DNA of 43,171 bases, taken from assembly GCA_023231475.1 (NCBI GenBank), contig JALJEE010000745.1:1-43171 (forward strand). The letters are read 5' to 3'. The DNA comes from Seison nebaliae (lineage: Eukaryota). Position 1 is the stretch's first letter; each line of letters opens with the position of its first letter. The notes under the pieces were generated by a model. The model did not search any database. It was given only the letters and a program-made list of their open reading frames with translations, and had not been told where the DNA came from. The position numbers and the translations under genes were made by a program. This document shows, in pieces, positions 2,077 through 38,761 of the stretch.

Positions 2077-2989
2077 TTAGACTAGAAAGGAGTTGATCGA
2101 TAAAAAATTATTATTCTTCTTTCGTTCTTTGTTTAAATAATTGATTGGTAGATTGTGAATTGTACATTCATCATTCGTCGATTTTGATGGTATTGGTAAT
2201 GATAAAATTGGAGGTTTATTCACAGTCTTCATATTAGGCGAAATTTTGGTAGTTGGGACGATTGTCGAATTTGGTGTTTGAATCAAATTCGAAATGAGAG
2301 TTTGTAATAAAATGTTGTTGAAGTCGGTTGTTGATGAGACTTCATTCTTAACATCTTCCTCCATTCTTCTCATCTTCTCTTCACCATTTTCTGAATGAGA
2401 ATTTAATTGACACAAATTTTTCTCTTTTGATAAACTGTCAGTTATCGCTTTTCGTTTACGATGTTTAGCACGACGATTTTGAAACCAAACCTAGATTTCA
2501 AATTTGATAGAAGGAAAGTGGAAAAGAATGAACATTTCAACTTGAACTCGTGCTTCGGTTAAACATACCCGATTCGCTAATTCGTCTCTAGTGACAACAT
2601 CAGGATATGGATTCGTTTGAAAACTTGCTTCCAATTCATTCAACTAATAAAATAATAAGATAATAAGAATGAAGAAAATTTAGAACTTGATATATGGAAA
2701 AAGTTGTTCGATTTCGACGTTGTTTCCTCTGATTCCCAATTTCCAGAAGAGCATTTTTCGATTTTTGAATTGTCGAATTGAAATTGTTGTTGAGTTGGAA
2801 ATTACTACTCAAAAATTTTTTGGAAGACGCTGTCAAATATTTGTCATCTAATACAGATGATGTTGATGGTGAAGTGTTGTCGAGAATATTTGATCGGAAT
2901 GACGCCAAGTTATTTTGTTGGAACCATTCTTGTAATTTGAGGAAATTGTTCGGATCATTAGACGATAATAAATTCGTATCAGAATTCAT
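2077..2989 (-). CDS. Paired-like (PRD class, Q50) homeobox transcription factor, Drgx/Prrx-like; 3 exons
   Basis: Spliced homeodomain [60 protein letters not shown]. Introns 2644-2686 (GTTCTA..TAG) and 2491-2541 (GTTGAA..TAG); the second lies at the classical PRD-class position between homeodomain codons 46/47. Confidence 0.9.
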
Positions 2990-5291
2990 CAGGATAAATC
3001 TGAAGGTATTTTGAATAATATGATTTTGAATTGGATTAATAGAATTGGATTAAATAAAATGAAATTAATAATAAGATGATTAAATGAGAAATGAGATAAA
3101 GGAATTTCTTGTAAAAGAATAGTGATACTATTTAATACGGTATAAATAGTAAAATGAATCTATCTAATTATCACATCATAACTCATTAGCTACTTCAGTT
3201 AAAACGGAACGATTTTTGATAAAAACTTATACTGTTTTGGGCGGTAACTGAACAGCTTTCGACTGCCACTCTCCAAAAATACACACTTATACACATTCTC
3301 CTTCATTAATAGAGAAATTGGAGGAAGAGGATGGAAGAAGAAAGAAGAACGATAATTAATTAGTTAAGTTTATTCATCTCTTTTCCGACGTTGTCTTGAG
3401 AAGATGATTTCATATTAGTAAAAAGGACGAATAAGAGAATTTGTGGTGTAATGAGGTTCCCTTCCGTTTCTTATTAATTCAATTTGAATTAATCGAATTC
3501 TTTCACACTTTCCAATACTATATTGAATGAGTTCGCTACAATGAGATGGTCATCGAATTTACGTTGGACAATCGGGAAATTTCTCCCAAAAAAATTGTGA
3601 ATGAATATTTTTAGGATTGATCTAATTTGAATTTGATGAGAAAAAGAAGGATTAACTAACTGATTGACTGTCTGACAGAATTGCATATTGACATAATGAA
3701 TAAAATACAATTGAATTATGACTCGTTAGAGTTTTCGTAAGGGAATTCCACAATTATCGTTACATTAATTGGAATAATTAATTAATAAATAAGATTTTAG
3801 TTAATCGAATCACGCCGACTAATTATTCCCAGCTGCTGATTCAATTTGATCAGAGTGAAGCAGTCAAATGTTCTAACGGAATTTCAGTGCTAAATCAACT
3901 TGATTCTGTTCAAATTGTCTATGCAACTTCTTCCCAAATGAAATTTCCTCACAAAAAAAATTTCATTAATTCAATCACAATTGTGACGAATTATAGACAC
4001 AATAAATGGAATTCATAAAATATTCGATGAAATTTTTCATTTTAGAAATATTTCAACTAATTTTAATTCAAATTGAAATTTAAATTCATTTAACGTTCAC
4101 CATGAAGAAGATGCCATTTAACGATTGTTATTAAAAACAAACTAGAAAAAGATTCAGTTAAATAGATTCGCTCAAAAACCGGTTTCTCAAACTATGATAA
4201 TGTTTTCGGATGATTAGCAAATAAGTCAAAGAGAAATGAAATTTTTTCATAAATGTAATAAATTGAAAGAGAAAATTAGGAAAATGAAAAAGAAGAATCT
4301 TAGTTAGTGAGTGATGAAGATGATGAGGATGAGGATGATGAAGTAGAAGTAGACAGAAGAAGAAGAAGAAGGAAGAAAAGGTGAAGAGATCATTTTGATT
4401 CTATTATGAACAAGAAATTTGTGATTCCGATACATTTCAATTAAGGAGAATAAGCAGAAGTGTCGATTATTAATCATTATGTAATTGTTGCATTATTGAC
4501 GAATAAGTGCTCTTGTTGGAATTAGATCTCAATTCATTACAATTATTCGATAAAGATTGCCGCCTTATGATCTTATTATTGATGATGATTATTGTACTAG
4601 AGTTAAGAGTTATGACGAATAAATTTACATGTCGATTTACAAATATTAATTGTAAGATGTGAATAGAATCAAAATTAATTTCTTATTCTTATCAACGAGA
4701 CGAAAATCTCATGACAAAGTCATGAAATTAATTAATTAATATATATCATCTCTTATACATCTCGTTTATTTGAACAATTAATAAATTATTATAAAAAATG
4801 ATTACGATATTTATCTTATTCGATTCTTGTCAATATCGATCGAATATGGCATAAAATTCTATTCGTCAAAGAGGCGAGAAAACTATTAAAAATTGAACAT
4901 AAATAAATTGATAAAATGAAGTTGATGTTAGGTTAGAATTGGAAAGCATTTTAATTTTATTATAATTGTCGAGATGAAACTAATCTGAATAATTAAAACT
5001 TTAATGAAATAGTTTTTGACAACCGTCGATCATATCACAACAGATGGTCGTTAATCTTGTGATTATCAAATGGAAATTGAATAATTAGATCTTAATCACA
5101 TTTAATGTTTCTTATGATTTGTTTCTCTAATGATCTTTTCTCTTTATTATCTGTTACCATTTGATGATATTCGTATAGACTGATATAGACGATGATAGAA
5201 GAAGTTCAATTAAATAACTTTTAATCGTAATCAATTACATTTAAGTGTATTAAATCGAATTAAATTTCTCGTGAAATCATTTCGCTATCGT

Positions 5292-6964
5292 TCATCCTTG
5301 ATCATACGATTTCACCATTTTCATAAAATGGTTATTGATCTTAATTGATTCGTTAGATTTCTCTTTTGCCGATCGATTCTTCATCTTCTTCTGTTCGATC
5401 ATCTTTTCGAAGTTTTCCAAATCGAAACTGAAATTGTAATTATTCTTCTTATCTATCAGCATCGTCGGCGATAGGAAACGATTCGCCCATTTAATTTCAT
5501 GTGGTAGATAAGAAGTTCGTAGTTCTACTGCACTGCCGTTCGTTTCCGTGTTGCCCGTCAACATGACAACAATTTCGAAATTGGGTAAACGAGTATATTT
5601 CTCGGCGAGGAACATGTTGTTCTTCGTTTCGACTTCTTCCGAGAAATCTTCTTCTTTCATTTCATAAAATGGAGAGTCTTCATTCACCTCATGTTCCACT
5701 AGGAGAGGATACATCGAAAACAAATGGGTAGCACCTTCATAAGCAAATTGGGAGAAGTTAAATCAGACTTAAATTCAAATTTACTTAACCTGAACAACGA
5801 CATTTAATTTCCGTCACTTTTACTGGTACCGATTGTACCGATTCATCTTCGCTGTCACTTTCTTTGTCATTCGATTTACTGAAGGAGAAACGACGTGAAG
5901 GCAACGTTGCTGATCGATCTAAAACAGTTTCTGGACTTAACATTGGACTCTTCATATTGGTTATTTCGCTCCAACAAATAAAAGGGGAACTTACCGGAGT
6001 AACTTGATTTCTTTTCACTTTCTTTCCTGTCGGACTGAATGAAACTGAATCTGACGATGATGTTGTCGTCGTTGGAATCGAACCATTTCCTTGAGATTTC
6101 GATGGACTTTTCCGATTTCTGTACCATTGATTAGAAATTCTTTCTTCTAATTTCGTTTTAGTAGTTGAATAGATGTTGGTTGAGTTGTATTGAAGGAAAA
6201 ATACTTTGAGTTCGGGAGACAATAATTGTGCTCGTCGAATATTTCCTAATTGGAAAGAGAAATACAGATTTCCATTTTCACCTTCATTAATTGTGGCGAA
6301 GTGAGTGAATACGATTGTACTTCTTCGTTTTTTCGGTTTTGTAAACTTTGAAAATATGAGACCTTAAATGGAAAATTTTAATAAATTAAATTTATTTCCT
6401 AAAATAGTTTTAACCAGTTACAATCACTTGCATCAAAAGTCCAAGTATGACTTGAAAATGCATAATCGTTATAACAACTTCACAATGTCTTGTAATATAT
6501 CCTACAAAATATAAATTAATACGATGATTATAATAAAATATTTTAAACGGAATCCATATCCGATCGTATGTTGAGTCTCAATAGAAAAAAGGAGGATAGA
6601 CGTGAAATCGAATACGTTTTGAATACATGGACTGAATCCTTCTTCATTTTTATAAGAATTATTTTTTGCATATTCGAAATCGCCATGATGGTAAGAAATA
6701 CCCCAATAAATTACACCAAAAAATAACCATGTCCCAACGAAACCTTTGAATTCGTTCAATTTTAAGTAAACTCCCAAAAAACTAATAACCCAAGAAGAAT
6801 AATACGAGAATCCATCTCCATTGAGATTCCATCAAAGTATAAAATATGTCAGCATATTGTCTACGACGTTTGGACGGAATACCTCGTAATTCATAATTAA
6901 GTAAACCATTTTTTTCAACCGTTCTAATGAATTTTGGTCTTTTATTCCGTTTGCGACACAGCAT
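5292..6964 (-). CDS. Inward-rectifier potassium channel (Kir/Irk family); 5 coding exons
   Basis: M1 WRWILVLFFLGFVGTWLFFG, pore FSIETQHTIGYGFR, M2 followed by FSKFTKPKKRR, and cytoplasmic HEVNEDSPFY / FEIVVMLTG / RTSYLPHEIKW. Introns 6744-6789, 6502-6548, 6363-6414 and 5735-5789, all GTT..AG. Start codon is uncertain. Confidence 0.93.
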
Positions 6965-7567: not shown

Positions 7568-10500
7568 TTAGTCAAGTGCAATGTGTATTTTTTCCAAATT
7601 TTTCTTCCATTTGGCCATTCCATGATGTTCCAGCCATTCTTCCCAGAACGACCTGATTTTGGCCATGTATGCTAAAATGGAGTAATATGAGAAGAACTAT
7701 GGAAAATGAAAAGGAATTTAACGTTTCTTTAAGTTCTCTTTATTGTAGCAGAAGTCGATTGAATCCTTTTTACCTTTTAACTTCAATTTCAGATATTTTT
7801 GGAAAACTGGCGATATGTGTCCAGCGATCTCCATGCTGAAATTAAGTCGTTCACATTTAAGTGCTACCCAAATTTAATTATTAAGTGAAATTCACAAATA
7901 TTTTAAGCTCAACTAACGACTCTTGCAATTATTATGATCACATTGTCTGGAAGTGTCTTTGTCCTTCAATAAAATTTCAAATGTCGACCAAGAATTTAAT
8001 CGATTCCATCGACGCCAAAAACGTGTCAAAATTTTTTCAACTGACAACTTCTGATCGATATGGCGCCGCTTAACACAAACTGGTACTAAAACATTATTTA
8101 ATTGTTTTCCTAAATAATATTTGTAAAATTTCGTTAATCGACTATCAACATCGTTCAATAATTTCTTATCGACTCTCACACCGAAACAAGTGGCAGCTCG
8201 TGGACATCGGAATATATCGAAACAAATATCGATTTCCTGAAGAACGCCTGGTAATTTTCTTGTTGCTAAACTCTTGATATTATTCTTTAATTTCCATTTA
8301 TTCTGTCGTCTCACTTTTCTCCTATAAATGGCTATTATAGTTCGTTGTTCTACAAATAAGCGAAATTAATTATCATTCTGATAAGAAAATTGAAACTTAA
8401 TCCAATAAATTTATCTTTTATACAAATTTCAAATTTATTCGATTGAAGTGGGAGGTATTGGGTGAGACGTTTATAGAAAACATCTCGACTTCTTAGATAT
8501 CTACTATTTTTCAATTGATAACAAACTTTATCACTACCACAATCACGATTGCAACCGAATTCATTCACTTTTGAAAAATAAAGATCATTTGATGAAAAGG
8601 CAAATAAATTTAAACTGCTATTTTCAAAATTCTTAGCACATTCATAATTGTTGAGTTCTGTGTACATACATTGTTCATTTTGAGAACATGTTTGAGTTGC
8701 CGGTCTCTCTTTCAATTCACCGTTTTTCGTACATTCGATTTCCGTCTGACAATTCTTTCCAAGAACTATAGTATCACGTTTGATAACTTCGTAATCGGCA
8801 TGATGACAACCACATTCATTCTTTTTAACCAATTCAACACCTTCATACAAATATCCATCATCAGCTTGACAATGGTCGAACATCATCTTTTCGGCCTGAC
8901 CACATTCCATTCCCGATGGATCGTTACACGTTTTATGACACAAATTATTTTCTCTCATATATTTGGCATTGGTTGGACAAATTCGACCTAGAAATTATTT
9001 ATTATAAATTCCATATCAGATTAAGCAACTAACGACAATTTCCTTTCATAATATCTACATTTTTGATATTTTTATTTGCACAATCATCTGCCGTTCTCTT
9101 TTGATATTCACAGAGAATATCATCGATGTCTATTTGATCGCCTTTCTTCAATGATTCTTCTAATTCACTTCGACAATCCTTTACATTATTTTTTATAAGA
9201 TTTCCGTCTTCCTATTTTCATTTTAATAAGAGACGAAAACAATGAAAACCACATCGATGAAAAACTAACCAATTGGCAATTCAGGAAAGATTCCTTCACA
9301 TGAACATCACAACCTGTTTTTATAGTTTTTTTTACCATATTATCCTCCAAATTATTATGTTCGATACCCATTCGTCGTAATTCGACGCCCATTCGTTCAC
9401 ATCTGCAAAATAAAAAAATTTCAATTAATATTTATTTTTAAAATTTGAACGAACTCGTCAATTCCCGAATCATCTGGAACTTCGTAAGAATAGCCACCGT
9501 TCCATTGAGGATTGACATCCTTCTTCACACCAAATGAATCGAAATCATCATTATTATCTTCGTCGTCAAAATTGCCACAAATTCCGGTCATTCGATTTTT
9601 ATAGTGGTCCGTCACAGACATTTGAACGAATCCGTCCGATTTGAAAACTAACTTCCAACCACACACTTTGTTTTCAATCGTCAATTTGTTCGTTAGGAGC
9701 AAACGACTAATTGTGATGAAATTATCAAAATCATGAGCATCCAAAGTTCCTGGTAACGAAATTGTTTGGCCGTTTACCTGTAATTTATTTTACCGTTTTT
9801 TTTTTAAATCGGAAAAACCACCAACTGATACTGTGTTTGATAATAAACGTATTTTGTGAGATAAAGTTACCAGATCGGCCAACAATGTTTTTCTACCATT
9901 ATCTCCATTAAAACGTTTAATTTGAACATCGAACCAACAGGAATCCTTTTAGAAATTTTTAAAATATTTATTTCAAGTCTTAAAACGAACTTGATATTGT
10001 TCTTTAACAGCTGCCATCGAATATTTGCAATCTCCTATAAATTCGAACTCTCTTTTATCAAATGTCTCAAATCGACGTGTTCGTTTTACAGTACATGCAT
10101 ATAATTCTTTATCAGCTAATTGTTGGATAATGGAGGAAATATATTATAATTAAAATTTAAAATCTACTAACCAACGTTAACATCTTTCATTTCATGTAAA
10201 AGTAACAGATGTCGTTGCACTGGATTTGCATTCTTCAATTTTTGCAGATTTTCAATTTCATCTAATGTCGCTCGTTGTTTTAAGTCATTCCTAATCTTCC
10301 TTAAATTGTCCTTCAACGTATCTTTTAATTGTTCAAGTTTTTCCAAATTTTTTATTTTATCGTTTTTCTTTAGTTTATCTTTTTCTTTGATGACTTGCAT
10401 GATATCCCTTATTTTCAATTTCATTTGTTCCCCACTTAACATATCACATTGTGCTTTTAAGGCTAATTTAGCTTTATCCACCTTAACGTCCAGGCGACGT

Positions 10501-13500
10501 GTTAAGAAGTTTTTCACGAAAGTGTTTCTCTAAAAATTGGAATGACATGAAGTTTGAAAGAGATTAAAATAAACTTGAGCGACTAATGCTGAGTGTTTGC
10601 GAACTTTATTTCCAACTTTCTCTTTTCTTTCCATACGCAGTCGTCTGATACGCCTTCTCCTATTTCTCGATCTATTTCTATTTCTCGGTTTATTTTGTTT
10701 TTTCTTCTTTTGTTTTTTCTTCTTTTGTTTTTTCTTTTCTTTCTTCTTTGGTTTAGTCGTATTCTTGGTTTCTTCTTTTTTCTTGAAAATTGGTAGATTA
10801 AAAAGGTGTTTGAATATATCTAAATGGCGTTTAAATCTAGGGGGTGCAATTTTTTCGGTCAACATAATTTTCATAGTGTCCTCCTCATCATCATCGTCAT
10901 CATCATCATCATCCATCAAATTTGTCTGTTCAATATTTTCCACATGATTTTCTTCCACTAGTTCCTGCATTTTATCGTCGATAGTTTTCAGTTCATCTGT
11001 TTCCGGTATTGCAATCGAACGTTTCTTTCTACCAAAAAAATGACGAGCTAAATTCGCGAGGAGACCATGGTTGTGTTGATGATGGTGGTTTTGCACTTTC
11101 TTCTCCTCATGATTTTCCTTTCTCTTACTATCTGTCGCATCTATCATATTTTTCTTTTGATTGTTTTTCTTCTTTTGGTTCTTCTTCGTTTTCTTTATTT
11201 CCTGGCCTAATTTATCTGCTACTTTCTCCCATTTATCATGAATTGCCTCTCCAGTCAATTTCACAATATGTTTTGCGTCAGAAAATTCGAATTCATTGAT
11301 CCAATGATCTCCGTCACATAATTTACTTTTCGTTACTTTACCATTATTCTTTTTAATTTCTTCTTCGTCCTCCTTCTCTTTCATTTTTTGTTCTTCTTCT
11401 CTCTCTTCACGTCGTACATTGGCCATTTGAGGTAAATCTTCAACCGTCTCCTCAATACATTGAAACTTAACGACCAATACAGCGCCTTGTCGATGACAAA
11501 AACTTCCATGAAAAATTCGATTGTAAACAAATATGTCACAAGACGCTGAACCATCACATTTCTTCTGTACTACATCTAACGCGTTAGGATCAGAACATGG
11601 GAAATCATCCGCGTTCAATGGTGGATTGACTTTCGGTAAAGGACATTGTGCAATTCCTGTTTCTAGACGAGGTTTTCCATAGAAACTACCGATAATTCGG
11701 ATAACTGATGATTTTGGACATTTAATTACCAGATGATCGAACGGACATACAATTCCGGAAGATTTTGCAGGAACTTCTGCAGTTAACGACCATAAATATA
11801 CATCTAATGCAGCCGATTGATCAGTAAAAAGAGGATCGTGAATTTCATTAATTTTTTCGTCCGTCACACTATTTTCCCCAACAATTCCATCATCAATTAA
11901 CGTTCTTATTGCTTCAGATTCGATTGAAATTTAAAATATAAGAAACATTAAGTTAAAATTAACCACACGCACTATTCGGATTGCCAGCGAAACCATTATT
12001 ACATTGGCATTCGAATAATTTGTTTTCGTTCAAAACACATGCCGCATTCGTTCCACATTTCGTTTTCGATGATCTACTTCTCAAGTCATTATGTCCGACA
12101 CAAGTGTAGATGGTTTGACAATCGGATGCCAAAGCCTCTTGACCGACATCCAGTTGTCCAATATTCAATTGGGAACATCCACATTTGGAAGGTAAAACGC
12201 ATTTATCTTTGAAATGTAAATATCCCTCTTTACAAACACATTGATCACCGGGCAATGTTAGAATAATGGGATCACACGCTACTCCTTGAGGATCATCACA
12301 AGTTTTTGGACAATTTTGTATTCCTGGAACATACTCCGAATTTTGTGGACATGTAATAGCTAAAAGAGAATAATTTATAAAATTCTGTAAAGTTCAGACT
12401 AACGGCAGAAAAATTCGCTTCTCCATTCAACTATTTTTCCCGTCGTCTTTGCACATTCGTCCGCCAAATTTCCAGCATGAGAACATTTAATTTCTTCTTG
12501 CTTGAGTGCTGGTCCTTTTCGAAATAGTGCCATAATATCCATTTTACATAAATTAACTTTCTCCACTACTAAATCGTTGTGTTTTTCTCCACATACTTGA
12601 AATGCGACAACTTTCAACATCTCTTCACATAATTCATCGATCTCATCCTTCTCTTCTGGTATGAGAGGTGGTGGTAAATTCTTATCTACATCCTGTTCCG
12701 ATTTCACAGAACAATCTATATCTGGACTGTGACATAAAAAATTATGAGAGAATTATAATGAGAATTAGAATTATTTAAATAATTAAAAACTTATATTGAT
12801 CAATGATTCCAGTGTCATCATGTACTTGGAATGAATCACCACCAGCCCAATTAATCGGATCCAAATATCCTTGCATTATTCCATTGGCATCGTTCTTATC
12901 ATCTTCTCTATCTCCATTCGCATTACCACAGATACCCATCACCTTCTCTGCATATACTTCATTAATCATAATATAAGCATTCATTAATCGATTGTATATT
13001 ACTTGGATACCACAACAAATATGTTTCACCGAAACGTAAGAACTACGAACGATGGATATTTTAAAATTTCCCTTTTGAATTTCTCCAGTTTCCGGAACCG
13101 TAATATTTTTCCCATTGAATGTCTATTTCAAAAAGAATAATATAAGAATTTTAATTTAAAATAATTCACCGTATAAGATCGAGTAATTCGAATATGTTCA
13201 TGATGAGTTCGAACATCGATTGCTTGTAAAGTCGATCCAAATGCTCCATTACTATCCAACGTATGATCTTCCGTTTGTTTCACTTCCATAGTAAACCAAC
13301 ATTCACTACTCTCATCAATCAATCTAGCAGCAGTATATTTACAGACGCCTTGAAAATGATTATAAATTCCGTCGAATGTTCGGAAATGAGGATCGCCTGA
13401 AATTGAGCAAATCTTCTTATTTACCAAATCTAAATTATTGTCACCCAAACATGGATCAGGAAAAGTAGCTGGTGTAGGTTTCTCCTCAAGAAGACCTTGT

Positions 13501-26516: not shown

Positions 26517-27790
26517 TCAACTATTCCGTAATTTAAACGCGGGTCCTGTAAAAGCTGAAAAATCTTTCTAGAAAATTTCAAACAAAATTTTCATTTTCAA
26601 ATAATAGAAAAGTAATTTAACATTCGTATTCAATTCGCTCTCATTTACCGGTCGTTCATGAATAAATCTTATATTTCCTAAAGGATAATCATAATTTGGA
26701 ATTCCACTAAATAATCGAATATCAAAAATGAAGAAAAGAGAGGACAGAAGAAAAAACCGTTTAACAGAATGATTTATTATCTGATCTCTTTCTTCTTCTT
26801 TCTCCATATCAACTTTCTTCACTTTTTTCGGTTTCCCATCTAATCGGGTTCCTGTTCCTGCGAACGTCGACTGATATGAAGAAAAATTAAATAATTTGAA
26901 TTGAATTAAATAATTTTAATTTGAATGAAACCTGATTTTTTCCATGAATGGCCATATTGATATCATCATCTTTCGGTTTTATATTGAAATATTTATTCTT
27001 CTGAGTATTGGGACTCTCGACGAGAAACTTATTGTGAATATCGACACTAATATCAGTTTCTACAATCGATATCGCTCGTTGTGGTTTACATTCAACTACT
27101 TTCATGAAATAAATCTTTCGAAAATTATGAGAAGAAATTGAGAAGAAAATAATGAATAACTTTCCCATTATATTCCATTGCTATTCGATCGTCTTGAGTG
27201 AGACAAGCTTGTGCTCGTAATTTCATTTCTAATCTATTTGAATTGACATTGATTTGAATTGAGAAATAAAGTAGAAAATGAACACAGCAAAATAATCATG
27301 AATTTCAAAAAAATCTGGAGTTTCCGGTTCGAATCTGACAAAAGTGCCTTGTGGTAGACTGATGTAACTGACATTAATTCCATTTAACATCACTCCCAAA
27401 TTATTCAATATCCAATCCGGAACGACAACTGTTCCTTCTTCTGCTGTGAATTCGAATACTCCACAATGGGTGACTAATTTTGTGTCGATCGCTTCTAATT
27501 TGAAGAGCATCGGATATTGAACACTCATTCTAGTTAAACGATCGAGAATACTAGCAGGTAAATTAACTGGGAGAAATGAAGATAATTAATAGTAATGTCT
27601 AATGATCAACCTTTCCCTCCGAATTTCATTTGTTCATTCCTACCGATCGCCGTCATCGATACCGGTTTCAAACCGATAAATACCGGAGGCATTGCCATTG
27701 AATTGAAATCTTGAAATATTTGGTGCTAAGCAAATAACAAATGAGAAATGTGAAATGTTAAAAAATCATGTTTGAAAGTTAAACCATCAT
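26517..27790 (-). CDS. UFD1: Ubiquitin recognition factor in ER-associated degradation 1; about 8 exons
   Basis: GGKVNLPASILDRL, YPMLFKL, THCGVFEFTAEEG, AVLEMKLR, AISIVETD, FAGTGTRLDGK, GIPNYDY and C-terminal FSAFTGPAFKLR. Seven GTT introns; the first exon (ATGATG at 27790) is inferred, with an alternative start at 27698. Confidence 0.88.
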
Positions 27791-28016: not shown

Positions 28017-29622
28017 ATGCCACCACAACAAGTTCTTCATTTTTAAATTAAATCATTTCAATTATTATTCAATAGAATATGATGGATGTCAGTTCAAGTG
28101 ACATTCGTATTCTAATCGACAACACGAAGAAGGAACCATTACTATTTCCTGACGGCTTCAAAAAGATGGAAAAGGAATTGAAAAGATGGAATGTTTCAAC
28201 GTTCGTTCTTTATATTTCTTCATCATTTATTCTCCCCATAAATCTATTTCAGTCATGAGAAAGGTATAACAACAGAAATTTTGAAAAAGTATCAAATATT
28301 TGTTGCACTTAATCCGAGAGAGAAGTTCACCGAAACCGAATTCCATGCTTTGGAAAAATTCATTGAGGAGGGTCACTCCGTCTTCCTAACACTCCACGAA
28401 GGAGGAGACAATAAATATGATACGAATTTGAATTATTTTCTAGAGAAATTTGGAATTTCTTGGAATAATGGTTTTTTTCCGTTTTTATCATTCTATCTTA
28501 ATCGAGTCTTTATTAGATGCTGTTGTTCGAACATCTTATTACAAATATTTTCATCCAAAAGAAGCATTGATACCGAATGGTATTGTCAATCGTAAGATAG
28601 GAGAATATTTAGGGAAGATTGCAATAAATGATGATTTCGGAGGTGGTGGCGATGATGATGATTATAATAAAAATAACGAGTTAAATTCATTTAAAAACTT
28701 AATTTTAGTAATTAAATAATTATTTTACTAATTAATTATAGATCAGTTCGATTTGTTTATCCTTATGGGTCGACATTAGTATGTCAGAATCCTGCAGCAA
28801 CAATCCTTTCTTCAGGCAGTGTATGTTATCCATTATCACAACCGATATGTGCAGTACATGGATATGATGATAAATCGTCAGGTAAATTAGTTGTACTGGG
28901 ATCGACGAAGATGTTATCCGATCAATATATCGATAAAGAAGAAAATAAAAAAATTTTGGATTTTATTATCAATTTCCTTCTGGGTAAAATTGATTTGAAC
29001 GAAATGGATGCGAATGATCCAAATGTTAATATCGATCAATTATTTTCCAATAATATTCCATTAATCAGATTGGAGAATATGTGTACATTCCAGATATTGC
29101 ATATCTATCGGAAACTGTCAAAACATGTCTACAGGATACTGATCAGATTCCTCGAGATTTCACGAAATTATTCGATCATAAATTATTCACTCTCAATACA
29201 TCATTAGTTCGTTTCATTCTCATTCTCTTCTCCTTCAATTCCCTCCGCAGGTACCGACAGTTATCGAATGTTACAAAGATTTGCATGTGGAACATACTCC
29301 GTTGACTCTTATACCACCAGAATTTGAAACTCCTCAAATGGATTTACAATTGGCAACTTTCCCGCCGCAATTCCGAGATTTGCCAGGCCCATCACTTGAC
29401 TTATTCGATTTAGACGAACAATTCTCGAGTGAGAAGACGAGACTGGCTGTCTTGACGAACAGATCGAAGAAAGAAAAGAGTCTTGAACATTTCATAAGAG
29501 AAGCGGGTGAGATGATGGGAATTATGCCTCAACTACCCGAACATTCCCGTACAGCTAAACATGTTTTGGCCTATATATTTCGAGAAATTGCAGAATTTAA
29601 GAAAAGTGAAGTTTTCGGATAA
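28017..29622 (+). CDS. IFT52: Intraflagellar transport protein 52 (IFT-B; OSM-6 orthologue); 7 exons
   Basis: PREKFTETEF, TNLNYFLEKFGI, DAVVRTSYYKYFHPKEAL, FVYPYGSTL, DQYIDKEEN, IPRDFTKLFD, LTLIPPEFETP, LDLFDLDEQFSSEK, IAEFKK. Six GTT introns. Confidence 0.95.
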
Positions 29623-29794: not shown

Positions 29795-31330
29795 TTATTG
29801 TCGATTATTAATTTTTTTCATTACACATGAGTCACTTACTTTGTTCCATCCAGTTGAAGGATAATAAGTAAATCCAGACACGTTCCGTTTCCGACTCACA
29901 CATTGACGGCTATTTTCATTCCTATATATAATAAATTTTCAATCAATTTTCTATGAGAAAAAAACTAACGAGACATTAGATGGTTTTTCGTCATAAATTC
30001 CATTGGGAATATGTATCACGTCATTGGTGCTCACTGATTGGACGAGACTACAAGAAATGGAATAAGAAAAATATTTTCAATAAAACTGAACTTTCCGACA
30101 ATTGTCTGTTCGGGAATGTGCGAAATATCAGTATTTTCAACATTCTTCACCAAATTGACATACTCCTTATAATTCTTATCATGACTAATCCCCTGATTCA
30201 TAACGGTACGCGCATTTATTTCACGATATCTCTCTGCAATTTTTCGACAATCCTTTCCCACATCTTCACTGACAATTCTTCTCATTTTACATTCCTTATC
30301 GATCGAATTGAAGATATCGAAATCGACACTCTCAAAACTAGTATCATCCGTTGGCAATTCAGATTGCCCACAAGAATCTCCTAATTTACATGTCTGTTCA
30401 AGACGTTCATTTATACTCTGGTCTTTATAATTCCGTCTGACAGATAAAGCACATAAGTTCAGATATAGAAAATAAAGAAAACTTCAATTTTTCAGTGACT
30501 TTTGCTTGTGCTAAAAAAACTGGTTGACTTCCATACTGGTTGTTTAAGATACCTAATACATTCGAATTATTTCGAATTGGTATTATATTTATCTTATTTT
30601 TGGGATAAATATTCTTCGTTCGCAATTTATTTGATTCAAAATTTTTCATAAGAATATCAATTTCATCCTTTATGTCGTCACTAAAAAGTATTGCAAGTTA
30701 TTAATATTCTATCTTCAAAATATAACCTCCTAATTATTGATAAGTATTTATTTATCCCGAATGCTATAATAAAATAAGCACCACGTTGAAGTAGTTTGCA
30801 AATCTTTGGTGAATATATTGCCCGTTTATGATTTAGTTCTAACAGAACACGATTCTCCAATCGTAATAAATTTTCGAACGATTTTACGTTATGAATTCCA
30901 TCGGTCAATATTTTATTGAAATTCGGTAGACATCTCACAAGATCTTCATTGGTTCTTATATCGGCGAACAAAATCAATTGAGATCGGAGTGTAACGAGAT
31001 TTTTTAATAAAATTGATCGAATCATCGATAAAGGTTTCCAGTAAATTAAATTTGAAATTCGACTGAAATAAAAGTGGATGTTTAAGAGAAAACGGTGACG
31101 TTGCACTATATTTATAAAAACATCAATAAATACGTTTAATACAACGTGTATACGTGTAAGTATACGTGTACTTACAATAGCTCGTCATCATTAGATATAT
31201 TCCAGTAATCTTTTAACTATGAGTCATCCTTACGGATTTGTTTTTGCATGAAATGGAGAGAAATCATCGTCATCTTTAATAAAATGTCATTAAGACTGAC
31301 ATGTGAAATGGATTTCAATTTCTCCGACAT
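29795..31330 (-). CDS. Uncharacterised protein, about 6 exons
   Basis: Five GTT..AG introns (including 31063-31217) join ORFs 30681-31106, 30425-30649 and 30031-30357 into one frame from ATG 31330 to TAA 29795. No family recognised. Confidence 0.55.
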
Positions 31331-31514
31331 ACATACATACATCGAATCTATCTATTACTTCTCTTCTCATTCATTTCGTTTCTAGACGTTTAATTCTTTA
31401 CAAATTTTATTTTCAAATTATTTTAAATATTGGAAATATTGACTAATTAGAATATAAGATGTAATCAATAAATTAGTAGATCTTTCAGAATTATGAATGA
31501 TTAAATTTTATAGT

Positions 31515-32039
31515 TAGAGCTGTCCAAATGAACATGAACAGAATGTACATTTTTCGAACGAAAATTGTGGACTCATGCGGTTCAAAGATGCGGTTCTTGA
31601 AAAGTGTTCACATCAGTTGTTTGAACAAAGTTTGAACAATTATTTAATTAATTAATAATTTAATAATAGTAGTTACTAATAATTAATGTAATAACTAAGA
31701 AGTCCAGATTTCCGCACTGGAAAAATCTAAAAATATAACAAATATATTTCGTTAATACTTTTATTATTAATTACATAAATATTTAGTTATTTGTTATATT
31801 ATTATATGTTTCCAGTGCGGAAATCTGAACTTTTTAATTATTACATTAATTATTAGTCACTACTATTATTAAATTATTAATTGTTCAAATTTTTTTCAAA
31901 CAACTGATATGAACACTTTTCAAGAACCTCATCTTTGAACAATGTATAGGAGTTTCATGAAATATGTTTTTTATAAATCCTGACTCCACAATTTTCGTTC
32001 GAAATATGTATTCTGTTCATGTTCATTTGGACACCTCTA
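31515..32039. mobile_element. Foldback/MITE-like non-autonomous DNA transposon with long inverted arms (Mutator-like TSD)
   Basis: Left TAGAGCTGTCCAAATGAACATGAACAGAAT... is the reverse complement of right ...ATTCTGTTCATGTTCATTTGGACACCTCTA. The arms pair for about 230 nt (e.g. CAGATTTCCGCACTGGAAA / TTTCCAGTGCGGAAATCTG). Flanks TTTTATAGT (31506-31514) and TTTAATAGT (32040-32048) form a 9-bp direct repeat with 1 mismatch. Confidence 0.85.
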
Positions 32040-32282
32040 TTTAATAGTTCTAACAAGGGAAGTATCCGATATGCAGGAAACGAAATTAAAATTAAAAATA
32101 AAAATAGGATATGTAAAAAATAATGCTTATTAGGATAGCATTTTTATTTTCTGCCATTTGTTTCTATTAGTGCCTAAAATGGTGCAAAGTTCGTGTAGTT
32201 ACTATAAATACAGTAATGGCGGTATATAGCATTTTTATGTAAAATTAATTAATGTTTTTTTAAATTTTTTTACGATTTTATA

Positions 32283-32456
32283 CGACGAATTCACCGAAAT
32301 ACGACTAAATGGGTGACAAATTCACAGTTTAGCAAAAATACGCAAAATTTAACATTAAATTTTTTTCTTGGGTGACGAAATCACCGAAATACTCTAAAAG
32401 GGGTGACGAAACCACCGATTTTCGCTTAAAAATTATAGGGTGACGAAATCACAGGG
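32283..32456 (+). repeat. Array of about 5 degenerate GGGTGACGAAATCAC(C/A)G units
   Basis: Copies near 32283, 32311, 32370, 32401 and 32438. The core GGTGA-CGAAA-TCACC is a mini-palindrome. Confidence 0.7.
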
Positions 32457-32898
32457 AATAACTCTAAATTCTTTCCTTGTAAATAAGTTCTTAATATCAG
32501 TTTATCGTATTAAGAGAACTGAAAACAGTTGTTGTCATCAAATTAATAAAAATCGCAAATATAATCAATATCCACTATTATTATTATTATTATGTGAATG
32601 AATGTTTTATAGAAATATTCCAATTCACCAGAAGCACAAATGAGTGATTGGAAATGTTTGAATGGAATTTATCTATTTGAATTTAAAGGAATTAAAATAA
32701 TACAGAAAGAAGCTTTGTCTTTACAAATGAAAGAAATATGAAAAATTCTTTTATGTTTCTTTGAGCGACGAAGAAACGTTGAATTATTAGTGCAGATGTT
32801 GTTGCTTACTTGATTTGTTAATAGCGAAGTGTTGCTTAGTAAAACGAAATAATAGTTGGTTTCTAAAGATTGTTATCCGATAAGAAAACAAGAAGAAT

Positions 32899-33248
32899 AT
32901 GGTTCCTATTATGATTATCTTCTCTAAATTCACTAATTTTCCGTTTCTCAGAGTGAAGTGGAGGATTCATTGAAACGTATATCATCACACCGAGGCGTCA
33001 TTGGCGTGGTTATTGCTAATAGTGAAGGTGTGCCCATTAGAACAACATTGGACAACTCAAGTGCAGTGCAACATGCGGCGTTATTACAACGATTAACATC
33101 GAAAGCACGAAGTGCTATTCGTGAATTAGATCCACAGAATGATTTGTGTTTTATTCGACTCCGTTCAAAGAAACATGAAATAGTCATCGCACCCGATAAA
33201 GATTATATGCTCATCGTTCTCCAAACACCAATTTCACAAGAAACTTAA
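32899..33248 (+). CDS. DYNLRB: Dynein light chain roadblock type; 2 exons
   Basis: ATG|intron 32902-32951 (GTTCCT..CAG)|[18 protein letters not shown]...[32 protein letters not shown]. Confidence 0.95.
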
Positions 33249-33542
33249 TCTCCAACGAACTATCGTTTAACATTTTAATTTCTCAACTTTCGAACACCAA
33301 ATTCATCGGCTAATCATTCCTTTTCGTTTCGATTTATTCATGTCGAAATTTTTTCCGTTTAAAAGAAATATATATAATAATATTCTCCGAAATTCCACAA
33401 ATTCCCAAACTATCGTTCATTTAATTTAATGTTTAAAAGAAAAAAAGTTGATGATAAAATTTCGTTTAATTTGTCATATTTAATTTGTTGGTAAAAATAT
33501 TTATGAAAATCGATTAATAACAACCATAGTTCATTCGTGCTC

Positions 33543-34115
33543 TTAACATGTTCCAATCAGGTGTTCTTTCTTTATAAATTTGTATATAAATAAATAGAGA
33601 AAAAACGAACTATTCACCACAAATGTCTTTGAGCGATAACCAGAACGATACTTCACGCAAGCGCAGATAACACCTGTACTCCAAGTAAAAGCATCCGATT
33701 TCTTGTAACTGTCGGGCGTTCGGAGTACTTTAAAAATAATCCCCCGGTCAATTTCATTTGAAACATCCATTATTAATTCCTTTTCTCCATCTAGAGTTTT
33801 ACGTACGAATATCTTATCGCCTGATCTAATGGTCTGCACATAAAATCGATCCACTACACAAGTTTGTCTGAGAAATGTGTTTAATTTGTTTGAATAAAAG
33901 GGAAGGAATGTTGAGGCATGATCTATGCAACTGGTTACATCATCACCATAATGATTGTTGTTATTACTATGGTTTTTACACAGAATTGATATTCCAAATT
34001 GTTTCTCGTAGTATTGGAAAGGAATCATTGGGTTGGAATAAAATATAGAGGATGTCATATGAATGTTTGGAAATATGGCAAACATTACAAGTTGTAGGAT
34101 ACTTTTAAGGAACAT
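33543..34115 (-). CDS. Uncharacterised secreted protein
   Basis: Signal-like N-terminus, several Cys, and a TATAAATA about 55 nt upstream. A probable GTTCGT intron near the 3' end (from about 33610) makes the true stop uncertain (33543 or about 33514). Confidence 0.55.
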   Translation of the reverse strand: MFLKSILQLVMFAIFPNIHMTSSIFYSNPMIPFQYYEKQFGISILCKNHSNNNNHYGDDVTSCIDHASTFLPFYSNKLNTFLRQTCVVDRFYVQTIRSGDKIFVRKTLDGEKELIMDVSNEIDRGIIFKVLRTPDSYKKSDAFTWSTGVICACVKYRSGYRSKTFVVNSSFFLYLFIYKFIKKEHLIGTC

Positions 34116-34610: not shown

Positions 34611-35324
34611 TTAATAAATTACATGACAAATAGGTTTGACAACTCTAAATTTATTCTTCAATCCTAAACCGTTAGATGAAGTACAACATTCTACTGGAAG
34701 TGTATGAAATAAAGATCTTGTCGTTACAATTGAATCGAGACGATTCGGTTCATTATTAATTGCAACTTCTTCGCAAATTATGTCATGATCGGGTGCTAAT
34801 GCTTGCATTGGATAGTGATATGATTCACGATTACATAAGCAATATTCTCGATCCCATTCTATCTTTTCATGACAATTATCATAATGAGCAATATCTCGTC
34901 GTTCACAAACCATCGGATATTTTTGAAGATCATCCAAATAATCTTTGTATGAATAACAACGAGCTACTTGACTGCAATGACAGCCCATTATATTATTTTT
35001 TCGTTCATTCAATCGTTTCATTAAATCGTAATATTCGTCATGACGAGGTAATTTTTTAGATTGACGAGAATTACAATAAATTAAAGCCGTCATATCAGTA
35101 TTCATCTTACTTTGGGGACAATTCGTATAATCCTTAACAATCTTATCCATCGGAGTAGACATCGGATATTTATTTCGTGGTATCACACTCTTCCGACTAA
35201 TCAATTTCATGATGGATTGATGTTTCACAGAATTATGATCTCGTGTATATGGTTTCAATATTTCATACTCCTCCACTGTCGGACTTTTATCACATTCACA
35301 AGGAATCTTTTTACATTGATACAT
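34611..35324 (-). CDS. Uncharacterised Cys-rich protein, 237 aa
   Basis: Long single-exon ORF with ATG; no recognised domain. Confidence 0.6.
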   Translation of the reverse strand: MYQCKKIPCECDKSPTVEEYEILKPYTRDHNSVKHQSIMKLISRKSVIPRNKYPMSTPMDKIVKDYTNCPQSKMNTDMTALIYCNSRQSKKLPRHDEYYDLMKRLNERKNNIMGCHCSQVARCYSYKDYLDDLQKYPMVCERRDIAHYDNCHEKIEWDREYCLCNRESYHYPMQALAPDHDIICEEVAINNEPNRLDSIVTTRSLFHTLPVECCTSSNGLGLKNKFRVVKPICHVIY

Positions 35325-35484
35325 AATGACAACTAATAAAAGAAAGAGAAAAAACAGAACAAAAATCTGAAAATTTTAAAAACTTTCACTTTCATTTATT
35401 ATGTTTTTTAAAGAATTAGAAGAAGATTAGAAAAAGATTAGAAAAAGTTTAAAGAATCCAAAAGAATTATCAGATATATTCCAT

Positions 35485-38400
35485 TCAACTCTTCAATTTC
35501 AGAACGTCAATAACTTGTGTTGGTTCTTGGAAATATGGCCAAATATATCCCAACGTATTCTCGCTAAGCATCGTCCTCATCGTTTCGAAGAGATCGACCA
35601 TCGGTGGGAATGCTCTATATACGAAAAAGAAATCGCGAAGAAAGACAAAACAATTTGGTCGTACAACTATGGCATTAGTGAATGAAGTGAGTGATATTTC
35701 AAAAAGTAATTCGTTTGGAATTACACAGGTAATGATGGAAGGCATAATATCGGCATGTTGGAGAATTTCGATAAATTGTTTGATTGTTGATTCATCCCAT
35801 TTCAACGATGTTTTCATCATTGTCAATATTTCTAATGCAGTTACACCACAAACCATTTGCCAAGGCGGAAATGGTGCTTCTATTTAATTAATTTTTTTTA
35901 TGAAAATATTTTTCTGAAAAATAATAATGAACCTGATTGAGTAATTTCACTAACACCTCCTAAATTCATTAAATTTTCTTCATTCACTTTCTCATAATAC
36001 TCGACACAACTATCATAACTGATCAAATTGGAACCGAAAGCATTTTTCAAAATTATTTCAAGCTATTCACAAAGATCAGAAATAAAGAGAGAAAATAATT
36101 GTTAAACGTTACTTTGAATTACATTGTGTGCGTTCTCTATTGACGCATATAGCGGTTTCATACGACTTGCACTTAAATCTTTCATTCGTTCCAAAAAATC
36201 TAATTTGCCTTGTTCAGAAAATTCAAATTTATTATTTTCCATTTCTGAAAGAATCCACATTCCTAAAGTTTGATGTAATTGTTCCCGATCACAAGTTTCA
36301 CCTAAACTTTTGAAATTTCATTGATAAAATTTAATTTTCAAACTTGAATTAGATTTCTTATCAATATCCACCTCCTCCACGATATAGTACACCAATTCTT
36401 GTAATGTGTCGTTATCCAATTCGGAGATGATGGAACGTGTTTCATTTAGAATCAACATTAATATAATACTTTTCATAATATCCTCACGTCGACCTCCACA
36501 AGCTGCTGAATATAATAAGTGATCATGTTGTTCGATTGTTGCATTTTTAGGCCATAAATATTGGAATGGTTGTTCATCTATTCAATTGGAATCGTTTAAG
36601 TGAATAGAATGAAAATAATGGAAACGTTGTCGATATTTTTCTAAGGGAGACGATCCTGATTTCGACCTCTCAATTTTCTCTAATGATGTATTTATCTTTA
36701 TTCGATCACTAACACCCAATTCTCCGAATACTGAAAAGAAAATTAAAATTAAAATTTTACAATGAAGAAACTTAACAAGTATCATTTAATTCTTTATCGA
36801 TTTCAGGAGATAAATTCTTTACCGGACAATTAGTTCCGGAAGAAAAGCGACTTGTACGATTGGCGTCTTTAATCTTCTTCCGATACCCAGTATCGACGGC
36901 AGCGAACAAATCATAATAAGACTCTGAACATTTTAATTCGATTAATGATAGATAGATGATTTGATTTAATAAACCTTGATGGACGGAATCCGATTTTAAT
37001 AATTGATCAGCAATTGTCTCTTTGTTAATTCCCTTTTTCACTTCCATCATTTCAACTGCTAAAATCACTTTATTCTTTACATCCTTGAACTCCGGTAGAG
37101 GATACTCTATGAAAACATTTGACGATTTAGCGCAGTATATGTCATTTGTAAAAGAACGGAATGATCGACCTTTCCCCACATACTCCAACAGATTAATATA
37201 AAGCGCTTGACGTCGATAATGTAACGTGTCATTATCTTTTTCGTTCAATTCCGTCAATTCTCTTATAATTTTAGTGTTACGTTTCAAATCGGTAACAGAT
37301 GTATAATCTAATGCACCTGGTGGTAGAAACATCTATGGAAATTGAATTATCATTTCCGAGTTGTTAAACTAACCAAATTGGAACTCATCCATCTAGCTAG
37401 AATATCAAAATATTTACTTACACCTTTTCCTTCTTTCGTCGAGAATTTATTGGTCACTTCTGCAGTGAAATATGATATTCCCATTTCGTCAATCAAACGA
37501 CTCAACAACTCAATTAAAATATTGGTCAATTCTTCCACTTCTATCAAAAATCGAGTGAAAAAATTAAATAAAGGGAAGAATTAGTTAACTGAGCGATGAT
37601 ATATTGATGTCTGGTAGATAAGCTAAACAAACTAGTTCCTTATATAAAGTTTCGAGAGAATTCACAGGAAAATTCTCAAAATATTTCTTAATTGTTCGAA
37701 TATACAATAAACGAATCTATAAAATTTAATTTAAGTTTTATCACAAAATTAAAAAGATTCTCCACTTTCTCTGGTGTCGGTATCTGTTTTAGGGTATCAG
37801 AGAAGCCTAAGGTATTGGCGATAGTTTTCAAAATTTGTTGCTTTTGAATTTCATGTTTGGCATTCATGAATTCGTGAAAAACTTTCCGTCCAATATTCCG
37901 AAAAAAATAATCTCGAAGTTCCGTAACAATTTCTTCTCTATCTGAATGAAGTTGTTATTTAAATATTTGATGGTGAATGGACAACCTTGTTTCATATCCA
38001 AAATTTGCATTGGAAATGTTTCCGATAAAGTTTTCTTATAAAATTGAGTTAGTCTTTTCAAATCACAATTCTCCAATCTCTCCGACAATTCCGTTGACAT
38101 CGGTTTAACTTTTTCTGGTTACAATTGAAATTTTCTTCTTAATCTCAAATATTATCGGAATGGAACTTTTTAGCTTAAAATTTTTTAGAAGTAAATTGTG
38201 ATAATCTTTCTGACGGGATGCTAAGTCGTCCATGAACCAATAGAGATGTTCCATAACCAGCTTCTTCTCGAACGGAGTATTTACCAATTTCTGTGTTAAG
38301 TTAATCAATTTATCTGTATCGTCTTCTAATTCATCATCTTTTGTCTATTTTGAAAATTCTCATTAATACTAATTGATATGAGAAGAAAAACCTTTTTCTT

Positions 38401-38761
38401 CTCATTATCCTTTTCTGCTGGTGGCTGTTTTTAGTAAAACAATTTAAAATTATTGTATTTGAGTAATATTGTTAACTTCTAACGAAAATTCGACGTCTTG
38501 ATTCGCTACATTAATCGATGCCGGTACAGTTTCTAATTCGATTCTATGCTCATCTTTTAACTGAAGAATTTTCTTAAATCTTTCCGTATATTCATCTTTT
38601 CTCCTTTTAGCATAATCTACTCTTTTACGGACAACTGCATTAGGTACTGCTGAATCAGGTGCTACTATAGTTGGAATTAAAATGAGAGAAGATTCGTGTA
38701 CAATCTTCCTGAAATAATTGCATCGTTGTTCATTAAATTCGTCATCTGATCTTCCATCCAT
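35485..38761 (-). CDS. Large uncharacterised protein, about 13 exons
   Basis: Twelve short introns (11 GTT; 1 GTG at 37717-37765) link ORFs 38450-38761, 38105-38308, 37864-38100, 37350-37547, 36772-37332, 36582-36785 and 35485-35856 into one frame. No family recognised. Confidence 0.65.

Follow-up and report, generated by a model that had tools for sequence, protein, structure and literature searches.

Introns predicted in a 43,171-bp contig of Seison nebaliae (Rotifera sensu lato), which we call the window and which amounts to about 0.1% of the genome, begin almost without exception with GTT, and we are confident that this donor bias is real. Few features of animal donors are as constant as a purine at +3, for which pairing with U1 is the explanation. 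The excerpted text of PMC11732430 likewise gives this purine as the usual animal consensus. In our curated set of 73 introns from 16 genes, all predicted from DNA, 71 donors are GTT, two are GTG (13123-13169 and 37717-37765) and none is GTA or GTC, which places the GTT share at 90-99.7% (95% CI) and that of GTA at no more than 4.9%. A preliminary description of this DNA had arrived at about 73 introns, about 71 of them GTT, with GTG at the same two sites and no GTA, and our recount reproduces it. Our literature search found no report of GTT donors for Seison, nor did it yield frequencies of the +3 base in bdelloids, monogononts or acanthocephalans.

Robustness of the GTT bias

The curated set combines 63 of the 74 introns in the gene-model list with six introns from NCBI models and four chosen by eye, the latter not blind to GTT (24064-24111, 27726-27784, 32902-32951 and 35333-35383). 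Eleven gene-model introns, nine non-GTT and two GTT, were left out. Eight of these are joins of 157-856 nt that fuse genes, overrun the end of a gene, leave out an exon or run antisense. The others are 15291-15339 (GTG), antisense within an exon; 37942-37982 (GTC), for which the NCBI GTT site 3 nt away was used instead; and 58-103 (GTG), where the gene at the contig start is unsettled and a donor-blind gene finder gives a GTT intron at 115-166.

These selections, the roughly 50% T content of the introns, their prediction from DNA and the unspecified training of the NCBI predictor could all point to an artefact of T-rich mutation bias, of circular gene prediction or of this contig alone, and 9 of 69 introns do have a further feasible GTA or GTG donor within 30 nt. 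We nevertheless consider such an explanation highly improbable. T makes up 49.6% of intron interiors and follows 50 of 95 non-donor intronic GT dinucleotides, and the GTT excess is far above both backgrounds (binomial p = 2e-19 and 1e-17, respectively), in line with the earlier claim that T at +3 exceeds composition. The gene finder, given no donor information beyond GT, still called GTT in 44 of 51 introns, and where only a single donor is feasible it is GTT in 38 of 39 cases. Four NCBI protein models have GTT in 33 of 34 introns, all 34 with GT...AG ends that restore the frame. The GTT placement ranked first in 13 of 13 introns when scored with HMMs of non-Seison homologues, and the introns of nine homology-anchored genes are, as previously described, all GTT (33/33). 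Of 12 genes tested, 11 scored lower when GTT was forbidden (the neuropeptide gene by only 0.4), and IFT52 was left unparseable. No convincing hidden GTA intron was found among 536 in-frame candidates. The top candidates reached an LLR of 4.2, called introns having a median of 8.7, and the best GTA candidate (6577-6615) was rejected, as it sits inside the conserved IRK domain.

Genes and introns of the window

A homeobox gene (2077-2989, minus strand) has introns at 2644-2686 (GTTCTA) and 2491-2541 (GTTGAA). The second falls between VQ and VWFQ and separates exons matching Pfam Homeodomain positions 13-46 and 46-57; we take it to be the ancestral PRD 46/47 intron, and on that assumption the earlier claim of an old intron position with GTT stands. 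The gene for an inward-rectifier K channel (Kir; 5292-6964, minus strand) has four GTT introns (6744-6789, 6502-6548, 6363-6414 and 5735-5789), the last beginning with the shifted-type motif GTTAAGT. A perfect canonical GTAAGT at 5989-5994 (minus strand) lies inside a predicted Kir exon; the 45 nt at 5950-5994 could form an in-frame GTA intron, but they score as exon-like (LLR -3.8).

The longest intron series, 17 of 18 GTT, belongs to a 2360-aa VWD/TIL/C8/SUEL protein (7568-15577, minus strand) whose only basis is frame continuity and an ab initio model. Its introns lie at 14978-15036, 14671-14717, 14431-14483, 14160-14218, 13123-13169, 12727-12790, 12360-12403, 11912-11963, 10530-10574, 10116-10171, 9946-9990, 9778-9825, 9403-9454, 9212-9269, 8988-9033, 8350-8396, 7864-7917 and 7672-7722. 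The GTG exception at 13123-13169 (minus strand, GTGAAT) has no other feasible donor within 30 nt. A likely neuropeptide precursor with AFDSFD repeats between KR sites (18230-18607, minus strand) has one intron, 18533-18580 (GTTAGT), which is in-frame and stop-free with a weak placement, and a glutathione S-transferase gene (19383-20070, plus strand) has one at 19516-19564 (GTTCCA).

The LUC7-family gene SNEBB_004344 (P0166; 21460-23048, plus strand), presumably of the L3 type, has retained both zinc fingers, as an alignment to yeast Luc7 shows, and its introns at 21565-21620, 21728-22216 (489 nt), 22354-22398, 22572-22612 and 22781-22820 are all GTT. All introns are likewise GTT in the genes for an astacin protease (23405-24418, minus strand; 24308-24349, 24064-24111, 23845-23890 and 23620-23672), one exon of which had no PDB match; TRPT1/Tpt1 (25632-26357, minus strand; 26221-26272, 25902-25946 and 25739-25782); UFD1 (26518-27787, minus strand; 27726-27784 after the ATG, 27567-27610, 27234-27283, 27115-27160, 26871-26931, 26707-26757 and 26568-26621); and IFT52 (SNEBB_004348, P0001; 28017-29622, plus strand; 28032-28075, 28201-28252, 28471-28516, 28680-28741, 29025-29068 and 29207-29250). 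The NCBI model SNEBB_004347 joins UFD1 to TRPT1 through 26377-26538, which is also GTT and probably a false intron. A 44-Mb assembly and mRNA reads of S. nebaliae are published (PMC8351084), and the species has two diverged lineages; a low-depth second lineage spans some introns of the window, for example at 28092-28566, with 78 differences in 476 letters.

Several smaller genes follow the same pattern. Ab initio prediction is the only basis for a small gene with an unsettled start (25162-25616, plus strand; introns 25257-25301, which begins GTTTAGT, and 25362-25410) and for a gene without assigned function (29795-31025, minus strand), whose introns at 30681-30726, 30437-30482, 30048-30091 and 29922-29969 are all GTT and which has an exonic GTAAGT at 29834-29839. 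The Roadblock/LC7 dynein light chain gene (32899-33248, plus strand) has an intron chosen by eye directly after its ATG (32902-32951, GTTCCT); the GTA alternative of the gene model, at 32222, lies inside a high-depth repeat and was rejected. Two further genes without assigned function have one intron each: 33570-33610 (GTTCGT) in a gene with an unsettled 5' end (33514-34115, minus strand), and 35333-35383 (GTTTTT), chosen by eye, in a cysteine-rich gene (34611-35383, minus strand).

Finally, SNEBB_004353 (P0165; 35485-38761, minus strand) encodes 885 aa without a Pfam family and has 13 introns, at 38425-38476, 38345-38391, 38115-38166, 37942-37985, 37717-37765, 37541-37589, 37333-37373, 36924-36974, 36731-36776, 36578-36625, 36302-36343, 36063-36107 and 35880-35932. 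The second GTG exception (37717-37765, minus strand, GTGGAG) is part of the NCBI model and has no GTT alternative within 30 nt. A canonical GTAAGTAA at 37416-37421 (minus strand) lies in frame with the GTTAGT donor at 37373, 48 nt upstream of it. It is skipped in the NCBI model, and the 48-nt segment is exon-like (LLR -4.4). Homologue searches with SNEBB_004353 and with a LUC7 exon returned Seison proteins only, so the 18 introns of these two genes rest on the NCBI models and, for LUC7, also on Pfam and yeast Luc7.

Donor register, acceptors and intron class

G+5, U+6, G-1 and A-2 are retained in the normal register, and the switch is at +3 only. G occupies +5 in 20 of 73 donors (4.7x, p = 4e-9), 18 of which also have U+6 (coupling p = 2e-4), while G-1 occurs in 25 (1.9x, p = 6e-4), T-1 is depleted and +4 is mostly A or C. 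G+5 is anticorrelated with A-2 (p = 0.03), and two donor classes are seen, an intron-side GUU(A/C)GU and an exon-side A(A/G)-GUU. There are 31 different hexamers, led by GTTAGT (11), GTTAAA (8) and GTTCGT (6), close to the earlier figures of about 11 for GTTAGT and about 5 for GTTCGT. These enrichments contradict the statement in the preliminary description that +4 to +6 and exon -1 vary freely. Its view that GTRAGT has been abandoned is correct in that +3 has switched and GTA is missing, but overstated for the rest of the motif.

Canonical U1 might also read these donors one base off, in a shifted or bulged register in which U+3 pairs with U1 A7. Such registers were reportedly described by Roca and Krainer as rare in human 5' splice sites, and the likeness to Seison lies in GUUAAGU-type donors: GTTNAGT occurs in 4 of 73 versus 0.67 expected (p = 0.005), A+4 is associated with R+5 (p = 0.006) and summed shifted and bulged pairing is above a matched null. 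However, the G+5 excess also inflates these scores, 18 of 73 donors have GT at +5/+6 (p = 2e-12) versus only four at +6/+7 (p = 0.16), neither G+6 nor U+7 shows enrichment, and A-1 is unlinked to A+4A+5. As a general account the shifted register is quite improbable; its donors are a minor class at most in Seison, where the main class lies in the normal register.

All 73 curated introns have GT...AG ends that restore the frame, with TAG (43), CAG (18) and AAG (12) acceptors. From these ends and the normal-register G-1, G+5 and U+6, we class them on sequence as U2-type (major) introns. A purine is found at +3 in only 2 of 73 and A in none, which is a departure from the animal consensus and no argument against U2-type splicing. 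U12-type signals are absent, with no GTA donor and TCCTTRA in 0 of 73 introns. YTRAY/TRAY branch-point motifs show no excess (29 versus 27.2 in shuffles), and animal branch sites are degenerate. In coding sequence GTA is depleted (z = -6.4), but so is CTA (z = -6.9), which indicates a general avoidance of TpA.

U1 snRNA

No Rfam families were found in the 43,171-bp window. The sole U1 gene recovered from four DNA runs, in a search that reached genes at least 80% alike to U1 locus L036 and lost some contigs to a filter, has a canonical 5' end, AUACUUACCUGG, rather than the compensatory end that had been predicted. It likely belongs to Seison, although it could derive from another organism in the pool. 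Each of the four runs yielded exactly one U1 contig (0.6-2.2 kb) spanning the gene, which is identical to L036 at 78 of 90 letters, with a loose end that gives the canonical 5' end in register; contig depth relative to the window was 0.41 in run X1 and 0.59 in run X2, both of which behave as DNA. Mean duplex energies with canonical U1 are -4.5, -4.4 and -2.6 kcal/mol for A, G and U at +3, and because it pairs better with A or G than with U, the bias cannot stem from U1 pairing.

Instead, the dominant U1 could come from a second gene whose 5' end is compensatory (AUACUAAC, which pairs with GUUAGU), with the canonical gene a minor paralogue or foreign. GTTAGT is indeed the top hexamer, the canonical U1 contig is less deep than the window, and intact natural U1 genes with such an arm exist, L026 and L027, 2 of 130 loci (RF00003, 140.9 and 138.5 bits). 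The U1 tree did not resolve L026, L027, L043, L130 and L080, and a third arm match among the 130 loci, L059, is not a U1. A co-evolved U1 is also known in Entamoeba, but the same preprint, in the portion cited, has canonical U1 kept in most lineages with atypical donors (bioRxiv 10.1101/2022.06.08.495308), and the U1 of Fritillaria is canonical as well (excerpt of PMC13326754). With one gene-spanning contig per run, a near-identical paralogue is not apparent, and the X2 depth ratio is near that of the second depth class (81x/131x) published for the main genome of the species. We therefore think a dominant compensatory U1 unlikely.

Canonical U1 RNA might alternatively be combined with altered U1C, LUC7L/L2 or U1-70K, or with altered U1 modifications (loss of pseudouridine 5/6, 5' m6A), that favour U at +3. 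The canonical U1 gene fits this, and there are precedents in the excerpted sources: Fritillaria, its U1 ends unchanged, accommodates odd donors by way of snRNA m6A patterns (PMC13326754), Entamoeba U1C is highly diverged (bioRxiv 10.1101/2022.06.08.495308), and LUC7 paralogues bias donor class (PMC11732430). We remain doubtful of it; the sole LUC7 gene on the contig, with both zinc fingers intact, speaks against it.

Discussion

As a canonical U1 was found despite GTT donors, a later splicing step likely reads the changed signal. We tentatively favour the reading that U at +3 is selected after U1 binding, at the hand-over to the U6 ACAGAGA box, and not by a rewritten U1 RNA, though we hold it at somewhat less than even confidence. 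The observations from which it starts are T at +3 in 71 of 73 donors, never A, a donor otherwise in the normal register with its intron-side and exon-side classes, and a U1 gene with a canonical 5' end, presumably that of Seison. Canonical U1 would pair despite a U-U mismatch at +3, aided by the 40-64-nt size and AT-richness of the introns. The +3 base would then face U6 position 44, where U could wobble with G44, or form a full pair if G44 were changed to A, and where A would fit worst; tri-snRNP or B-complex proteins may enforce the choice. In the available text of PMC11732430, +3 faces U6 G44 in a weak interaction when it is A or G, and the cited part of the Entamoeba preprint suggests that U+3 could lengthen ACAGA pairing (bioRxiv 10.1101/2022.06.08.495308).

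We count in favour of selection at the U6 step that exonic AGGTT is under-represented (8 versus 18.1 expected, z = -2.5) and AGGTG is not; this depletion is weak, since 15 words were tested and AGGTA is also low (11 versus 16.2). Counted against it is the top hexamer GUUAGU, the exact complement of the natural U1 variant of L026 and L027. Computed for canonical U6, the +3 bases rank C > G > U > A, so A is indeed worst, but G44 wobble alone fails to explain the absence of GTC (0/73).

The closest known system is that of Entamoeba, whose GUUUGU(U) donors (88-90% GUUUGU) have a co-evolved U1 (ACAAAC) according to the portion of bioRxiv 10.1101/2022.06.08.495308 cited here. Both have U+3 as the rule and keep G+5U+6, and improved U6 ACAGA pairing is noted there too. 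However, in Entamoeba, a protist with few introns, the hexamer is strict and U1 is compensated, whereas Seison is an intron-rich animal in which only +3 is fixed, the U1 found is canonical and GTTTGT occurs in 0 of 73 donors. Fritillaria borealis, with 95% of introns outside GT-AG in a new class (excerpt of PMC13326754), is also an animal with an altered donor code and an unaltered U1 5' end, for which U6 and snRNA modification are invoked; Seison, in contrast, retains GT-AG ends and has a switched +3 base, with GTT in at least one presumably ancestral position. Excerpts of PMC11732430 and PMC10581693 describe 5' splice sites as falling into two classes (U5 loop 1 versus U6 ACAGA), with A/U switches at +4 tied to METTL16 and SNRNP27K. 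Seison has the same exon-side and intron-side split, and in both cases the identity of a donor base can change from one species to another, but the described switch is at +4 and in fungi; those excerpts describe no switch at donor +3, the "3 position" there being in the acceptor.

It is conceivable, though we hold it with slightly less assurance still, that Seison has recoded its whole intron set, ancestral introns included, to GUU and refuses GUA, with its U1 RNA unchanged, through a rewired +3 checkpoint in U6 or in proteins. An animal with a fixed U at +3, the rest of the signal kept and a seemingly normal U1 would separate U1 pairing from donor choice. It would offer a natural experiment for +3 specificity, whether in U6 position 44, SNRNP27K, PRP8, U1C or LUC7, and sequenced rotifer and acanthocephalan relatives exist for comparison. 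Seison genes would be mis-predicted by gene finders whose training came from other animals, and the finding is relevant to how old introns in their thousands may be recoded jointly.

Introns and their donors

Seison nebaliae, the source of the window, is a seisonid rotifer, and the NCBI models on this contig include SNEBB_004344, SNEBB_004347, SNEBB_004348 (matched by an IFT52 exon) and SNEBB_004353. All window introns are predictions, because they were read from DNA, and sequencing depth in X1 and X2 is even across exons and introns, a DNA-like pattern. Our curated set of 73 introns in 16 genes, which leaves out 11 gene-model intron calls, comprised 71 GTT and two GTG donors, with no GTA or GTC (95% interval for the GTT share, 90-99.7%). 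Their lengths were 40-64 nt in 72/73 cases and 489 nt in one. The preliminary description had reported near-universal GTT donors and suggested comparing +3 T with intronic T content; T is far above that content (0.496) on this contig (p=2e-19), and also above the frequency of T after non-donor GT inside introns (50/95; p=1e-17).

Five tests of whether the bias is real bear the claim out, and none of them scored the +3 base. A gene finder whose training set was the interiors of long ORFs, and whose sole donor requirement was GT, returned 51 introns in the window (44 GTT, 4 GTG, 2 GTC and 1 GTA); after self-training without a +3 term it placed GTT in 61/66 short introns and gave the same IFT52 structure as the NCBI model. 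The four NCBI proteins, themselves gene-model predictions, mapped exactly, with one GY-AG placement for each of 34 introns (33 GTT, 1 GTG), of which one (26377-26538) is probably a false fusion. For IFT52 and UFD1, all frame-compatible GT/GC-AG alternatives within 45 nt were scored against HMMs of non-Seison homologues (12 and up to 80 sequences). The top rank went to the GTT call at 13/13 introns, by 0.6-26 bits over the best non-GTT site, four of the 13 having no non-GTT alternative. Across 13 complete genes, 39/69 introns had a single feasible donor within 30 nt (38 GTT, 1 GTG), and at nine an additional feasible GTA or GTG donor was present. Forbidding GTT lowered the parse score of 11/12 genes, and IFT52 could then not be parsed. 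A scan through exons of the window for GT-AG segments in frame and free of stop codons gave 536 candidates, none of them a convincing hidden GTA intron. Perfect GTAAGT words occur three times in predicted exons (5989-5994, 29834-29839 and 37416-37421), the last of which precedes a GTTAGT donor by 48 nt, in frame with it, and is left unused in the NCBI model. The GTT-donor observation is confirmed for this one contig, on predicted introns, and we consider it very improbable that the bias is an artefact.

The other donor positions, described earlier as varying freely, also carry signal. G at +5 is 4.7-fold enriched (20/73 donors) and is accompanied by U at +6 in 18 of these 20, while G-1 is enriched 1.9-fold and A-2 1.4-fold, T-1 is depleted, and A-2 tends to be absent where G+5 is present (p=0.03). 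The enrichments and this opposition point to two classes, an intron-side GUU(A/C)GU and an exon-side A(A/G) followed across the junction by GUU, which resemble the U6-type and U5-type donor classes in the available text of PMC11732430. Four GTTNAGT donors (p=0.005) could suggest that a shifted register explains the bias, but GT sits at +5/+6 in 18 of the 73 introns and at +6/+7 in only four, and we regard this explanation as quite improbable; shifted-type donors are a small class at most. The donor is an ordinary one, with only +3 switched from R to U. Acceptors were TAG (43), CAG (18) and AAG (12), and no branch motif rose above shuffled sequences in the 73 introns.

Other features of the window

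Low-depth contigs in X1 and X2, about 81-85% alike to the window at 27194-27568, 28092-28684, 32950-33251, 34611-35105, 37025-37334 and 40272-40887, represent a second lineage, as strains A and B described for the species; some of these contigs span introns. SNEBB_004347 fuses UFD1 and TRPT1 through the GTT intron 26377-26538, which is probably false; the UFD1 frame closes at a stop near 26518, and an ATG for TRPT1 lies at 26357. Minus-strand features include a likely neuropeptide precursor (18230-18607) in which AFDSFD occurs five times, separated by KR/RR sites, presumably like the pedal peptide or orcokinin types, and a Ser/Thr/Pro-rich insertion (5800-6170; roughly 130-140 residues) in the cytoplasmic domain of a Kir channel, after the portion that aligns to solved Kir structures. 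Also on this strand is SNEBB_004353 (35485-38761; 885 aa), which matched no Pfam family and had no homologue in one word-based search. A repeat region (31260-32590) reaches up to about 20 times the window's depth and contains both short tandem units and inverted copies. Amid intron-rich neighbours sit intron-free genes for an ATP6AP1-like protein (720-1781), an unknown membrane protein (16328-18175), a cyclophilin that we take to be CWC27-like (38924-40063) and a Yip1 protein (40161-40880).

U1 snRNA

A compensatory U1 5' end had been predicted for these donors. A metagenome scan for the U1 pattern gave 130 matching loci. The U1 gene of one of these, L036, served as the reference to which contigs from four runs (X1, X2, X4 and X5, from two samples at most) were aligned at 80% likeness, a search that reaches genes at least 80% like L036 and that a more diverged second U1 would escape. 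Each run had one U1 contig, alike to L036 in 78/90 letters (U1 bases 27-116), whose loose end (U1 strand) reads AUACUUACCUGG, in register, and whose opposite end carries an Sm-type site. In X1 its depth was 5.4 and that of the window 13.3; in X2 the values were 16 and 27. The X2 ratio fits Seison, because the available text on the published assembly gives a second depth class (81x vs 131x; PMC8351084), and the X1 ratio is lower. This canonical-end gene likely belongs to S. nebaliae, and the compensatory-U1 idea is weakened, as the single U1 found, among genes at least 80% alike, reads AUACUUACCUGG.

A second U1 might nevertheless explain the GTT donors. The intact metagenome genes L026 (276-436, minus strand; RF00003, 140.9 bits) and L027 (401-561, plus strand; 138.5 bits) have the predicted arm AUACUAAC, and their 5' arm AUACUAACCUG would pair with GUUAGU; both are close to canonical U1s and have a similar upstream element, so variant U1s can exist beside normal ones. 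However, among genes at least 80% like L036 the four runs each have one contig only, with the AUACUUACCUGG end, and we think a second U1 unlikely. L026 and L027 resemble the canonical U1s L043, L099 and L130; the element upstream of L026 and L027 is like that of L080, L119 and L130.

Comparison with known systems

GTT is a sizeable minority donor class in other AT-rich invertebrates. No GTT-dominated animal appears in the available survey text of PMC10599564 (30 species) or PMC3033335 (61 species), nor +3 data in that of PMC10125929, PMC13161344 and PMC3464624. The Seison genome paper (PMC8351084) has "intron" twice only, about gene span, neither of its two supplementary files contains the terms splice, intron, snRNA or snRNP, and we found no report of a Seison or rotifer donor consensus in a literature search that most subscription journals lay outside. 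Entamoeba is a protist precedent, with GUUUGU in 88-90% of introns according to the accessible sources; its U1 matches the donor, whereas the likely Seison U1 is canonical. Most lineages with atypical donors retain a canonical U1, as stated in the accessible part of an Entamoeba preprint. Fritillaria, as partially available sources describe it, is an animal precedent, with a changed donor code and unchanged U1 ends, but unlike those of Seison its introns have left GT-AG.

Recognition of the +3 base

The calculated mean pairing of the donors with canonical U1 is -2.6 kcal/mol as they stand and about -4.5 kcal/mol with A or G at +3. As these bases would pair better, U1 pairing opposes the GTT bias, and something else must therefore read +3. 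That U1 proteins or modifications set the preference seems unlikely to us; the LUC7-family protein of the window keeps both zinc fingers, which decides nothing on mechanism. Once the donor has been handed over, its +3 base lies opposite G44 of U6, and an A or G there interacts only weakly with G44 (PMC11732430, in the text available). In a calculation with canonical U6, A was the worst base at +3, which fits the absence of GTA, and C was the best, yet GTC is absent, so plain wobble is insufficient. Position 44 of U6 might be changed, U might be the sole base that both U1 and U6 tolerate, or a protein might read the base. The mechanism is narrowed, and we tentatively suggest that the +3 base of Seison donors may be read at the U6 step.
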